Below the pieces are notes generated by a model. It was not told where the DNA came from and did no database searches. It worked only from the letters and a program-made list of their open reading frames with translations. DNA of 64,000 nucleotides from positions 1-64,000 of the IMG/VR virus record IMGVR_UViG_3300020048_000055. One strand, given 5' to 3'. Each line of letters opens with the position of its first letter. Position 1 is the stretch's first letter. Position numbers and translations under genes: made by a program. Positions 24,092 to 28,693 of this stretch are shown piece after piece. Origin of the DNA: a virus.

Positions 24092-25027
24092 ATGGAAAAA
24101 ATATTTGGCGAATTGCCTGATGAGAAATTAAGTAAGCTTATTCAAAAAGAAAATAAGATAAACCCACTTGAAGATTTTCAACCCTCTAACCCCTTCACAT
24201 TAAATCTTATTGACCCACTCTTGGATACAGAAAAGAGTGCCTATTTTATGAAAAAAGCAAACCTAGAAAAACCTTTTAACTTAGACTTGAATGAGCTAAT
24301 CCCTGTATTCAAGGACATTCTTAGTGGTGATAAAAATGCTTTAATGGACCCCCAATTTAATTGTTTGAATTTGGCAAATATTAAACTTGCTATTGATTGG
24401 TTACAGGCAAATAATTCCCTGAATCCTAATATGAAAGATTTATTGGGTACAGAATCATGGAGACTTGTTTATAGAGCAAAACCTCCAACTGCTGAGGAAT
24501 TTCTTTCATATGCGTATCTTGGTCCTCAGAGTGAGACAATGTATGAACCTGTACGAGAACATTTCATAGAAGCATTTAGTCCAATTAAACCTTATAGGAC
24601 AGTAGTTTTGACTCCCCATATTGGATGGGGTAAAAGTTTATTTACCGTTTTAGCAAATTTATACATATCGACTTGTACTTCTCTTATGTGGCATCCTTAT
24701 AAATTCTTCGGTCAGAGTCAACCTCTTGATTGTAAAGTTTATACAAAAGAGGGTTATAAATTAATGGGTGATATTAAAGTAGGGGATAAAGTACTTACAC
24801 CAGAGAATACTGAAGCAGAAGTAATTCAGATTCATCCTCAAGGTAAAATAGCTACTTACGAAATAGAATTAGATGATGGAAGAAAAACAAGATGTAGTGC
24901 TCAACATCTTTGGAAGGTGTCTTACAGAATTGATAGTAATGGTGAAAAAATTTGGGAAACGGTTAATACTCAGTTTATGATAGATAACCCAGACTTAGAT
25001 TTTGAACTCCCAGACTTTTATTACTAA
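24092..25027 (+). CDS. terL: terminase large subunit N-fragment fused to split intein N-half
   Basis: PPTAEEFL, Walker A TPHIGWGKS; residues 209-311 are Hint N-terminal blocks. Confidence 0.9.
   Translation: MEKIFGELPDEKLSKLIQKENKINPLEDFQPSNPFTLNLIDPLLDTEKSAYFMKKANLEKPFNLDLNELIPVFKDILSGDKNALMDPQFNCLNLANIKLAIDWLQANNSLNPNMKDLLGTESWRLVYRAKPPTAEEFLSYAYLGPQSETMYEPVREHFIEAFSPIKPYRTVVLTPHIGWGKSLFTVLANLYISTCTSLMWHPYKFFGQSQPLDCKVYTKEGYKLMGDIKVGDKVLTPENTEAEVIQIHPQGKIATYEIELDDGRKTRCSAQHLWKVSYRIDSNGEKIWETVNTQFMIDNPDLDFELPDFYY
24716..25024 (+). other. split intein N-fragment (IntN, 103 aa, Ser1)
   Basis: Block A SQPLDCKVYTKEGYKLMGDIKVGDKV; block B TRCSAQHLW; ends at a stop with no C-terminal HN. Confidence 0.9.
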
Positions 25028-25034
25028 TTAAATA

Positions 25035-25097
25035 TCTTCTAATAGGATAGGTTTTGGTCGATCGACCTATTAGATTAAAACCTGTCCTTATTGGAGA
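25035..25097 (+). promoter_or_regulatory. RBS-sequestering RNA hairpin of the endonuclease gene
   Basis: 25035-25055 pairs (with G-U) to 25077-25097, which contains the GGAG RBS. Confidence 0.6.
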
Positions 25098-25102
25098 TTT
25101 GT

Positions 25103-26611
25103 ATGGAAAAGAAAAAAGAACTTGTAGGATTAATAAGAGTTAATTGTATTGAAGAAGTTTTAGCTAATTTAAAAGTATATGATAGGATGACTAAAGTTGC
25201 TTTCACTTGTAATAAGTGTAATCTTGACTCAATTAAAACCCTAAGAAAGCTAAAAGAAAAAGGGTTTAATTGCAGGAAATGTTCTCAAAGTGAAGGAAGA
25301 CGGGAATATAAGGTGATACAAGACCCTATAGTTGTTAGTTCATTAGGACAGATACCTAAACTTATAGAAGAAAAATATAGTAATACTCAAAAAATTATAT
25401 TTTTGTGTGAGAGTTGCAAAGTGGAAAAACCCTTTAAGTTAAAACAATTTAAAAATAACGTTATACCTATCTGTGAACATTGCACAAGAATCAAATCTGC
25501 TACAAAGTATATTCATGAAGAAGATCCTGTGAAAGTATCAAGTTTTTTAGAAGTAAAAAACTTGCTAAAAACTCATGGAGCACAACAAAATTTACTTTTT
25601 AATTGCCACAGTTGTGAACAAACTTGTATCAAGAGAATATCTGCTATTACTGAAAAAATGCATTGTGAAAAGTGTACTAAAGAACAAACTCTGTTTAAAA
25701 AACATGGGGTGGAAAATAAAACAGAATTAATAGAAAAACAGAGATTACATAGTAATGCTATACGAAAACCAACAGTTCTTAAAAATTCTGTATGTGAATC
25801 CTGTGGTGTTGGATTTTATAGAGGAATTAGAAAACAATCTGAGTTTAAGTTATGTAGAAAATGTCAAATGAAACAGACTAAAGAATCCAATTATGGATCA
25901 ATTGAAAAGTATAATCTTGAATTAAAATCCTTAAGGGAAGCAACCAATATTAATAGGTATGGTGTGAGATCCACTTGTATGCTTGAATCTGTGAAAGACA
26001 AAATTAAACAAAGTCTAATAAATAGTTTAGGGGTAGATAATTGTCAAAAAAATACGGAGATAAGTACTAAAACTAAACAAACAAAACTAAATAGATATGG
26101 ATATTCTTACTTTAATTTAGTAGAGTCTAAAAAAACTTGTCTTTTAAGATATGGAGCAGAAAGCTACGCCCAATCTGTTTATTTCTCAAAGACAAACAAA
26201 TCAAGATATCTATATAATGACACAAGTTTTGATTCGTCTTGGGAGCTTGCCTATTTTATTTTTTTAACTGATAAAAAAATAAACTTTCAATATAAACCAG
26301 AAGGTATAAGGTATACAGATGGGAACTTAAAAAAACATGTATATCACCCAGATTTTTTCACTGATCATTATGTTGAAATTAAAGGGAATCATCTATTAGA
26401 TAGAGAAGGGAATCTCTTTTGTTGTTTTAAGAGTGAAGAGCAAAACCTTAAAAATGAAATTTCTAAGTATAAACAGATTTGTATGAATGAAAATAATGTT
26501 GAAATAGTATCACAGGAAAAAATAAACCCCGTTTTAGACTATGTATCAAAAGAATACGGGAAAGATTACTTAAAGCTTTTTAAAAGCCCTAAAATACAGA
26601 AAGGAGATTAG
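25103..26611 (+). CDS. free-standing homing endonuclease (8 CxxC + YG repeats + PD-(D/E)XK domain)
   Basis: Eight CxxC motifs; RYGV-type repeats; C-terminal DSSWE...YHPDF...VEIKG; lies between the intein halves. Confidence 0.8.
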   Translation: MEKKKELVGLIRVNCIEEVLANLKVYDRMTKVAFTCNKCNLDSIKTLRKLKEKGFNCRKCSQSEGRREYKVIQDPIVVSSLGQIPKLIEEKYSNTQKIIFLCESCKVEKPFKLKQFKNNVIPICEHCTRIKSATKYIHEEDPVKVSSFLEVKNLLKTHGAQQNLLFNCHSCEQTCIKRISAITEKMHCEKCTKEQTLFKKHGVENKTELIEKQRLHSNAIRKPTVLKNSVCESCGVGFYRGIRKQSEFKLCRKCQMKQTKESNYGSIEKYNLELKSLREATNINRYGVRSTCMLESVKDKIKQSLINSLGVDNCQKNTEISTKTKQTKLNRYGYSYFNLVESKKTCLLRYGAESYAQSVYFSKTNKSRYLYNDTSFDSSWELAYFIFLTDKKINFQYKPEGIRYTDGNLKKHVYHPDFFTDHYVEIKGNHLLDREGNLFCCFKSEEQNLKNEISKYKQICMNENNVEIVSQEKINPVLDYVSKEYGKDYLKLFKSPKIQKGD

Positions 26612-26613
26612 AA

Positions 26614-26738
26614 GTGTCAAGAATAAAAAATATTAAAAGGGTAGAGGATTCTATTCAGCAATGTATATCCTTAAACTCTAAAGAAGGTTTATACTTAACT
26701 GACGAAAAAATAATTACACACAATAGTCCTGCAACGGT
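26614..26738 (+). CDS. terL: terminase C-fragment exon 1: split intein C-half (37 aa) + SPATV
   Basis: AAGGAG RBS at 26601, GTG 26614; MSRIKNIKRVEDSIQQCISLNSKEGLYLTDEKIITHN/SPATV with blocks F and G (HN-S). Confidence 0.9.
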
Positions 26739-27021
26739 AAAATAAATGCCGCCTCAAAGAGTGATCTTTGAGTGAAAAATCGAAGAATGAAGCGGGGAAG
26801 CTTAAACGCCAATCCGAACCGAAGGTCTTTAGTAAAATAAAGGTCAGGGGCAACGCATAGAGGGTGAACCTATTTAATAGAATATAATCCTTCCAAGAGA
26901 CTTCGACATCTCAAAATGAGATGAAAAGATATGCTAAACTGGAGTGGGAATAAACCACTCGATGAAAATGAGGGAAACCTCCAGAGGTGATGATAAAAAA
27001 CTTCACGATAATAACATTTTG
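26739..27021 (+). ncRNA. group I self-splicing intron (283 nt, no ORF, IA-like)
   Basis: P1 CGGU/GCCG with U26738-G26748; P2 CTCAAAGA-GTGA-TCTTTGAG; P3 TCGAAG/CTTCGA; P7 GCATA/TATGC; P8 CATCTCA/TGAGATG; P9 stems; omega-G 27021; P10 TAAAT/ATTTA; removal restores frame. Confidence 0.9.
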
Positions 27022-28693
27022 ATTTACTCAGGTTTTTTGTGCCGTAAGTTTAAAGAAAAGTTCAGAATTACTTTTTGAACCTATGTTAAATCTTTTAGAG
27101 TCATCCCCGTACTTTGTAAAGTGTAGAACAAAGCAAGCTATGGCAGAAGCTGAGGAAGAATTTACAACTAGTAATAAACCCGTAGATCATATCTATTGGA
27201 CAACCGCCACACCTACCTCGGTAATTGCAATGAGTAATGGAGCAAACTATAAACTTATTTCAAGTGCCGGGGGACTTTTGGGTCAGACAATCCTATGCGG
27301 CAATTTTTCAGAAATTTCCTTCTTCACAGACGAAGGCTGGAGCGACGAAAAAATTTTTAAGTTTTTCTATAAGTTGAGAACTCGTATTGAATCTCGTATG
27401 AAGGGAAACTTTTATGGAAGATTCATTCTGGATTCATCTCCAAACACTATGGAATCTGTAATTGACAAATGGATTTGGGAAGATGCTCCGAAGAGTAAAC
27501 TAAATTATATAGTATCTGGTTCACGATGGAAGCATTTCCCTTTAGAATTCCCAGACTTTAAGGATACTCAAGGAAATATAATAAAGGAAAATAGTTTCGC
27601 ATTGTATAAAGGTGGAAATGGAAAAGCCTCTTGTGTACTCCCTGAGGAAGCTGTAGAAGAAATTAGTCCTTTAGATTATGTTATCTGCCCTAAAAACTCT
27701 ATAGGTACTTCCTACATTGATATGGCGAGAGAAAATCCAATAGAGTTTCTTCGGGACCAGTGTGGTATTCCTTCTGGTAGTGCGGATAGACTTTTGAATG
27801 ACCCATTTCAAATAGAAGCTTGTTTTACTCATAAACTTAAGACTCTATTTACTCATATTCAAGCTGATACCAAGGAAGACCCAGAGCATTTAATTTGGGA
27901 TCAAATAAAAACAAAGTATTTCAATAAGATTCTTGACAGGTATTATTTTTGGTATAAACCCGAAATACCACGAGCACTCACTATTGACCAATCTTTTGCA
28001 AAAGACTGTACAGGAATATCTCTTAGTCATGTTGAGAGAGACCCTACAAGAATTGACCCTAACACTGGTGATATGATGAAAATCTATATTACCGATTTTA
28101 CTATTATGGTAATACCAAATGGTGGAGTAATGAACCTTGAAGCTTTTAAGTTTTTTATAATGGACTTAGCCAGATTAGGAAATATGAAAATTCTTCACGT
28201 ATCCTTAGACTCCTTTCAAAGCGTTTCTACTGTACAATCCCTAGAACGGTTTGGTATTGATGCAGAACATCTTTCTGTAGATAAAACTAATGATCCTTAT
28301 TTTAATTTTATTGATATGGTTGTAAAAGGAAGATGGAAAACAGGATTTAATATTTACTTAAAAAATAATATGAGTTCCCTTCAAATGCAAAAGAGATCAA
28401 AAAATGGAGAGAAAAACGCAGGTTCAGCAAAAGTAGAACATATGACTGGTGACATTGTAACTACCGGACCTACTTTATGGACATATGATGAAACCTCTTG
28501 GAAAATGATGAAGAATGGTATAAATGCAAAAGATGGTACAGACTCGGTAGTTGGAACAATTGAACTCTTAAATAAATATAGTAATGAATATGTCCCAACT
28601 TCAATTTGGGTTCCTGATACCATCAAAGAGAAAAACTATGTAAATGCAAAAATTGATGCTAAAAAATTAATGGATAAACTTGGATTCTTCTAA
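27022..28693 (+). CDS. terL: terminase C-fragment exon 2 (ATPase remainder + RNase H-like nuclease)
   Basis: Open frame from 27023 FTQVFCAVSLKKSSELLFEPM; ILDSSP, LTIDQS, SLDSFQS, KDGTDS motifs. Confidence 0.9.

Follow-up and report, generated by a model that had tools for sequence, protein, structure and literature searches.

The large terminase (TerL) gene of this phage appears from its sequence to be broken twice within 14 nt, first by a split intein and then by a group I intron. Its unspliced RNA carries a 43-codon frame in which the complete C-terminal intein half (IntC) is followed by the first residues of its extein, and the encoded peptide could act as a decoy for the N-terminal half of the terminase. 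We consider it probable that the phage simply tolerates this side reaction, which would arise from the stacking of two selfish elements and would cost terminase in proportion to the RNA left unspliced, and that it is not an evolved switch. The initial annotation of this DNA had proposed the intron, the split intein, and a length of 214 aa for a dead product, and these stand; its further proposal that splicing efficiency acts as a switch or timer on packaging finds no support in the sequence data. The window analyzed here covers the initial 64 kb of an IMG/VR virus record of 108,876 bp from an aquatic metagenome, for which CheckV gives a completeness of 37%.

Anatomy of the Terminase Locus

On the plus strand, the locus shows, in order, a 311-aa ORF (24092–25027), a 506-aa ORF (25091–26611), a 43-aa ORF and, after a gap of 337 nt, an ORF that begins with an ATG (27083–28693) (Table 1). 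The TerL N-extein aligns with the N-terminal third of intact homologues of 750–770 aa. The frame of exon 2 is open already from position 27023, and 100% of exon 2 aligns to the intact homologues. A search with this frame returned 336 relatives, which are mostly intact (750–770 aa) and many of which lie on contigs of 170–430 kb, suggesting that they belong to jumbo phages. The intact homologue P0006 matches the terminase large subunit family phrog_2 (PHROG 2) at 2e-13, and tblastn with the exon 2 frame hits genes annotated as the large terminase subunit in Vibrio and Rhizobium phages. A scan for promoters and terminators performed no better than chance and gave no terminator-like site between the gene pieces. 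The ORF that encodes TerL-N and the N-terminal intein half (IntN), starting at 24092, and the 506-aa ORF, starting at 25091, share a reading frame with several stops between them (25025–25090); this stretch also holds the palindrome GGTCGATCGACC.

Table 1. Features of the interrupted terminase locus in the window.
Feature	Position (nt)	Strand	Basis
TerL N-extein, 208 aa, with Walker A motif GWGKS, ending FFGQ	24092–24715	+	ORF translation; alignment
IntN (103 aa from Ser1 on) and its stop codon	24716–25027	+	gp41-1 match; likeness to P0074
Free-standing 506-aa endonuclease-like gene between the intein halves	25091–26611	+	Pfam and PHROG matches
Shine-Dalgarno (SD) sequence AAAGGAG for the IntC frame, 7 nt ahead of GTG	26600–26606	+	sequence
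IntC, 37 aa, ending THN	26614–26724	+	translation; small-protein matches; complex model with IntN
C-extein, initial 14 nt encoding Ser+1, P, A, T, and GT of Val; exon 1 ends here	26725–26738	+	intein-less homologues
Predicted ORF-less group I intron, 283 nt, IA-like, with P7.1	26739–27021	+	junction, blastn, covariation
Internal guide sequence; UAAAU to exon 2 (P10), GCCG to the exon 1 end CGGU (P1)	26743–26751	+	fold
Exon 2, the remaining TerL (Walker B, nuclease domain), 557 codons plus stop	27022–28693	+	alignment

A Group I Intron Outside the Rfam Models

Intein-less proteins read FFGQ-SPAT(V/I)-YTQV in this region (eight intact homologues aligned, 120 homologues surveyed). Joining position 26738 to 27022 yields SPATV-FTQV, which matches the junction of the homologues, and gives an IntC-TerL-C protein of 598 aa and, after protein splicing, a TerL of 769 aa. 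Judged from its predicted structure and its relatives, the stretch removed in this way belongs to the group I introns, of the IA kind known from phages. This call rests on our own structural analysis and on homology, because no Rfam 15 group I model matched in the window (E up to 10) or in three relatives, including the gyrA gene of AR9 (E up to 1). The missing match looks like a gap in the model. In blastn searches, the intron matches gaps in split genes of other phages with 70–82% identity over 95–205 nt, among them gyrA of Yersinia phage phiR1-37, gyrA of Bacillus phage AR9, a gene that its authors annotated as three joined pieces, and terL of a Clostridium phage. Moreover, more than 106 IMG/VR stretches share a core motif of 26 nt, which is located in gyrA, terL, and other genes; Rfam thus misses a large family of group I introns in phages.

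Covariation was scored on a structure drawn from the window's own sequence. Among 50 sequences, 96.6% of the cells in helices P7, P7.1, P8, P9.0, P9, P9.1, and P9.2 are paired and 25 of the 36 pairs change on both sides, with a covariation score of 0.559 compared to 0.184 for shuffled and at most 0.144 for slid controls. Helix P7 (98.7% paired, four of six pairs covarying) consists of A-U, a bulged C, G-C, then C-G, A-U, U-A, and A-U, and has the arrangement of a guanosine-binding site with an A-rich J8/7 ahead of it; some members of the intron family carry the classical GACUA/UAGUC in P7. Nine complete ORF-less introns support P3, which crosses P7 and forms a pseudoknot, together with P4, P5, P6, and P6a (93.1% paired, score 0.541 versus 0.207). 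In these nine introns, both sides change in five of the six P3 pairs, and P4/P5 are 96.8% paired.

The predicted ends of the intron are placed by the fold. In P1, CGGU|A pairs with UGCCG, with the pair U26738.G26748 at the splice site. In P10, UAAAU pairs with AUUUA of exon 2 (27022–26), the last U of UAAAU also closing P1, and the terminal omega-G is G27021. A sequence resembling the internal guide, GUGCCGU, also occurs in exon 2 (27038–44), but it is not conserved in the related contig L127 and is probably due to chance.

A Split Intein Related to gp41-1

The intein is inserted exactly between two adjacent residues (FFGQ|S...HN|SPATV, compared to FFGQSPATV in the intein-less P0084 and others), and its halves are located on separate ORFs. 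The hallmarks of an intein are present, namely a Ser nucleophile at both position 1 and position +1 and a terminal HN. Among solved structures, IntN is matched best by the gp41-1 split intein (6RIZ/6QAZ, E 2.6e-9). IntN is also about 70% identical to the contiguous mini-intein of P0074, which occupies the same site and runs straight into SPATVYTQV without an intron. The IntC peptide alone had no meaningful match in the PDB, for which it is too short. When modeled as a complex with IntN carrying ten extein residues, the 43-mer encoded by the unspliced frame reached an ipSAE of 0.90 in three runs, compared to 0.00 for the best of three controls, with a partner pLDDT of 87 and 96% contact agreement. 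That mark was reached by 51 of 78 solved complexes and by 2 of 108 mismatched pairs. Because split inteins are among the solved structures, passing may stem from resemblance to them and falls short of showing that this copy binds. Taken with the junction in the homologues and the covariation of the intron, the likeness to gp41-1 bears out the premise of the initial annotation that an intron and a split intein are combined here.

The 506-aa ORF between the halves matches Pfam DUF7487 (2e-11) and PHROG families of homing endonucleases and endonucleases (1e-5 to 1e-7). This is the layout of the fractured genes, for which the accessible text of Dassa et al. (2009, PMC2677866) describes split inteins whose halves flank a free-standing homing endonuclease gene; gp41-1 and one gp17-like terminase locus are among the examples. 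As in those genes, a conserved site is cut, the halves are on separate ORFs, and an endonuclease gene lies between them; IntN has 103 aa and IntC 37 aa, compared to the 88–105 aa and 33–54 aa given there. On the other hand, the window differs from the fractured genes presented in that text in that both nucleophiles are Ser and in that a group I intron lies 14 nt into the C-extein, leaving IntC on its own tiny exon. The same text reports group I introns that carry its new endonuclease family in recA genes, and in the part accessible, no intron beside a split intein is described (PMC2677866).

Recurrence of the Layout in Related Phages

A small-protein search among 5.8 billion proteins identified three other IntC mini-ORFs of 43, 43, and 47 aa, with 74–79% identity (E 1e-12 to 5e-15). 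Two of these (P0122 and P0124, both 43 aa) end in SPATIN and presumably have an intron behind them. The third (P0123, 47 aa) ends in SPATIYTQVA, that is, four native codons further on (SPATIYTQV, then Ala and a stop), which by its translation implies that the gene of that phage is interrupted four codons further on in the same stretch. The same IntC consensus is fused in frame to the C-extein in many TerL homologues of the 120-homologue survey. Because of the three mini-ORF relatives and this consensus, the 43-aa ORF of the window is not regarded as a chance small ORF.

The same order of parts was found in two JGI contigs from one metagenome (L127 and L130), comprising IntN at FFGQ|S, endonuclease-like ORFs and an apparent insertion element, an SD and ATG, IntC, and the intron. 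In both contigs, the SD is kept as GAGAGGAG plus ATG, IntC is identical to that of the window at 26 of 37 residues, and SPATV is followed by Asn and then by TAG, compared to TAA in the window, at the same codon 44. Residue 43 is thus K in the window and N in L127 and L130, as well as in P0122 and P0124. The intron is 77.6% identical between the window and L127, compared to 68–71% for the flanking coding DNA, which fits either structural constraint or a more recent spread of the intron. Helix P2 covaries between these two intron copies, and where a Phe codon of exon 2 is replaced by Tyr in L127, the P10 guide shows a matching change. By this comparison, the layout is ancestral to a small clade and not a one-off.

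A DNA pattern for THN-SPAT-(V/I)-(K/N) occurs in 26 stretches of the JGI metagenomes, of which only two, L127 and L130, are real, and in none of IMG/VR, while a protein-pattern scan of the JGI metagenomes gave no match. Searches of IMG/VR with TerL-C, P0120, P0074, and the IntC alignment as queries yielded nothing beyond intact genes, genes harboring other inteins, and a helicase-like gene with an intein. Among the approximately 105 IMG/VR loci with the intron core motif, none has the intron directly behind an IntC; at one locus, an intein lies 1.3 kb upstream of the intron within the gene they share.

The relatives also show further mobile elements. The TerL family harbors inteins at at least four sites, located after GK in Walker A, at FFGQ|S, before the QNG motif, and at Walker B (P0001–P0120; L115 2306–4207; L130 2–1087), both as contiguous forms with a LAGLIDADG-like insert and as split forms, and in some relatives as many as three protein splicings, in addition to one RNA splicing, seem to be required. 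On the minus strand of L127 (1–560; P0125), TerL-C enters, after LLGQ at Walker B, an IntN-like segment starting with Ala (AQPLDEPV...), which may be an Ala1 intein or a decayed intein; P0003 has the matching IntC, ending THN|T, at this site. Between IntN and the endonuclease-like ORFs of L130 (1132–2789) are an opposite-strand 415-aa ORF (with a C-terminal CxxC...CxxC) and a 144-aa ORF, which by eye look like a TnpB/TnpA insertion of the IS200/IS605 type. The endonuclease homologue of L130 is in two ORFs of 198 and 138 aa.

The 43-Codon Frame of the Unspliced RNA

From the GTG at 26614 to the TAA at 26743–45, the unspliced frame has 43 codons, which encode the 37-aa IntC ending in HN, Ser+1, P-A-T-V, and Lys. 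The 5' splice site falls within the Val codon (GT|A), which leaves only Lys and the stop to be encoded by the intron. The 43-mer retains all residues of IntC and the native extein context from +1 to +5. This agrees in coordinates and content with the peptide of the initial annotation, which was said to consist of an intact IntC, Ser+1, and five more residues, and the length of the predicted dead product is likewise correct (208 residues of N-extein plus 6 of SPATVK make 214). The DNA of the locus is identical in contigs from three sequencing runs of one study, one of which may have yielded the assembly itself. In the two other runs, contigs bridge the junction between exon 1 and the intron, so the stop is not an assembly slip. 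Neither an intron-less or intein-less variant nor any joint was found across the contigs of the three DNA runs, and no RNA run matched the locus. In a thermodynamic model, the ribosome site of IntC has a mean unpaired probability of 0.55 in the unspliced and 0.39 in the spliced RNA, which gives no indication that the site is concealed in the unspliced form.

The TAA begins 5 nt into the intron, within the P1 loop and the P10 guide. In six complete members of the intron family, which interrupt different genes, the first in-frame stop starts at intron nucleotide 4, 5 (the window), 7, 19, 20, and 34. Most group I introns of bacteria and phages have an in-frame stop right after the 5' junction, which keeps ribosomes off the core, and the upstream exon is translated on the precursor, as is needed for efficient splicing (PMC3073962, PMC3984707). 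The early stop of the window is a generic feature of introns and not special to this locus. Since these reviews report translation of exon 1 on the precursor, synthesis of the 43-mer is expected and not exotic. The T4 td, nrdB, and nrdD introns share with the window the U.G pair at the splice site, the P1/P10 guide, and the early in-frame stop, and translation of exon 1 on the precursor is expected for them as it is in the window (PMC3073962, PMC3984707). However, the truncated exon 1 product of these T4 genes is an inert enzyme fragment, whereas exon 1 of the window encodes a complete and potentially reactive intein half with a mini-extein.

Discussion

The proposed course of the side reaction starts with co-transcription of the three ORFs, between which no terminator-like site was found. 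Ribosomes would initiate from the strong SD, 125 nt ahead of the splice site, at a time when the 283 nt of the intron have yet to be made and folded, so that the earliest of them would encounter the TAA while the RNA is still unspliced and IntC-SPATVK would be released. During termination, the ribosome would sit over P1, and translation and P1 formation would consequently alternate. After splicing, the same start site would give IntC-TerL-C. The released peptide can probably dock on TerL-N-IntN and ligate SPATVK to TerL residue 208, leaving a dead-end fragment of TerL without Walker B and the nuclease domain. Our analysis establishes how the locus is built, which kinds of intron and intein interrupt it, and that the layout recurs; we infer that the peptide is made and that it reacts, and likewise how large its effect would be.

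The reaction of the 43-mer with IntN is chemically plausible, and the peptide should be able to ligate because it has the native context from +1 to +5, and about five flanking residues suffice in engineered split inteins. In semisynthetic trans-splicing, halves with approximately five native flanking residues splice efficiently, and extein effects lie within about 4–6 residues, according to the accessible sections of the report (PMC13014065). That system, as presented in those sections, uses engineered in vitro reagents with a synthetic IntN, whereas the window would produce a natural by-product and supplies IntC.

A by-product of two homing elements accounts for the layout most simply. The distance of 14 nt between the intron and the intein site fits the homing of selfish elements to one target, and two such elements at one conserved target, together with the usual ribosome stop, explain everything seen. 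Against this reading, the layout persists across relatives at 68–78% nucleotide identity, as an advantageous arrangement would. Moreover, the decoy would be finished far sooner than its 598-aa productive partner, and its effect could be larger than that of a simple tax.

It is also conceivable, if rather unlikely, that the peptide is irrelevant and that little TerL-N is lost, either because splicing is much faster than initiation or because the 43-mer is degraded or short-lived. Small unstructured peptides are generally unstable in bacteria, and GTG is a weaker start codon than ATG, both of which count for this alternative. It also gains from the terL gene of phage SIOphi, which gave only spliced transcripts in vivo, as stated in the accessible text of that study (PMC11878797). 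However, with transcription and translation coupled, the first ribosomes should reach the stop before splicing is possible, a concern that the review literature also raises, and translation of exon 1 on the precursor is reported to be necessary for splicing (PMC3073962, PMC3984707).

An evolved decoy, in which the peptide from unspliced RNA was selected to destroy TerL-N until splicing becomes efficient and ties the onset of packaging to GTP and translation, seems quite improbable to us. Such a role would agree with the retention of the full IntC and its native +1 to +5 context, with the modeled binding to IntN, with a ribosome site that the thermodynamic model predicts to be no less accessible in unspliced than in spliced RNA, and with the layout being kept in relatives. 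The closest published idea, as far as the available text of its source goes, is that terminase introns serve as 'molecular on-switches', and some phage introns are described there as splicing late in infection (PMC11878797). Nevertheless, all of the conserved features are already needed by IntC, by the identity of the exon, or by the intron (P1/P10 guide and ribosome stop), and the sole residue specific to the decoy varies between K and N. The position of the stop is typical of the intron family in unrelated genes, the intron stands directly behind an IntC at 0 of the approximately 105 IMG/VR core-motif loci, and its position here is explained by homing to one target. The nonlinear response put forward in the initial annotation would also require more than the locus provides, as with equal reactivity the loss of TerL-N would be proportional to the decoy share of all IntC-bearing chains, and titration would remain linear unless further assumptions are made. 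We give equally little credence to the wider proposal that a rapidly produced IntC mini-precursor caps TerL-N irreversibly, that the ratio of unspliced to spliced RNA, sensitive to GTP and translation, sets the start of packaging and that the selfish elements were co-opted as a timer recurring in a jumbo-phage clade.

Finally, the idea that there is no intron, and that the gene has decayed or its C-terminal part is made from the ATG at 27083 and works without ligation, draws on the missing Rfam group I match and on the gene caller having begun the protein (P0001) at that internal ATG, but it can be dismissed as highly improbable, as the 20 codons ahead of the ATG are open and align to homologues, no SD precedes 27083, the gap is a covarying structured RNA with the U.G pair, omega-G, P1, and P10 exactly where the frame is restored, and the intron is better conserved (77.6%) than the flanking coding DNA (68–71%).

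Introns in terL have been described in SIOphi of the Bastillevirinae (PMC11878797) and in Jug jumbo phages (PMC12880540), and according to the accessible parts of these studies, splicing was shown by RT-PCR or metatranscriptomes. As in the window, where splicing is predicted, short self-splicing introns interrupt terL in these phages. The accessible text of neither study includes an intron directly behind the C-fragment of a split intein or a dominant-negative product (PMC11878797, PMC12880540). The decoy reaction, as proposed here, would be a reasonable and testable consequence of the layout and, as far as the searchable literature shows, an original one.

The present value of the locus lies in a precisely mapped and confirmed layout that recurs in related phages and in a large intron family undetected by Rfam. 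If the peptide reacts, the side reaction would be a natural case in which a failure of RNA splicing yields a truncated protein that irreversibly consumes its partner polypeptide, and it would represent a cost or control point peculiar to an intron stacked behind a split intein. If true, it may also offer a possible design for splicing-gated protein ligation, and it would be relevant to the question of how essential phage genes can accommodate several selfish elements at once.
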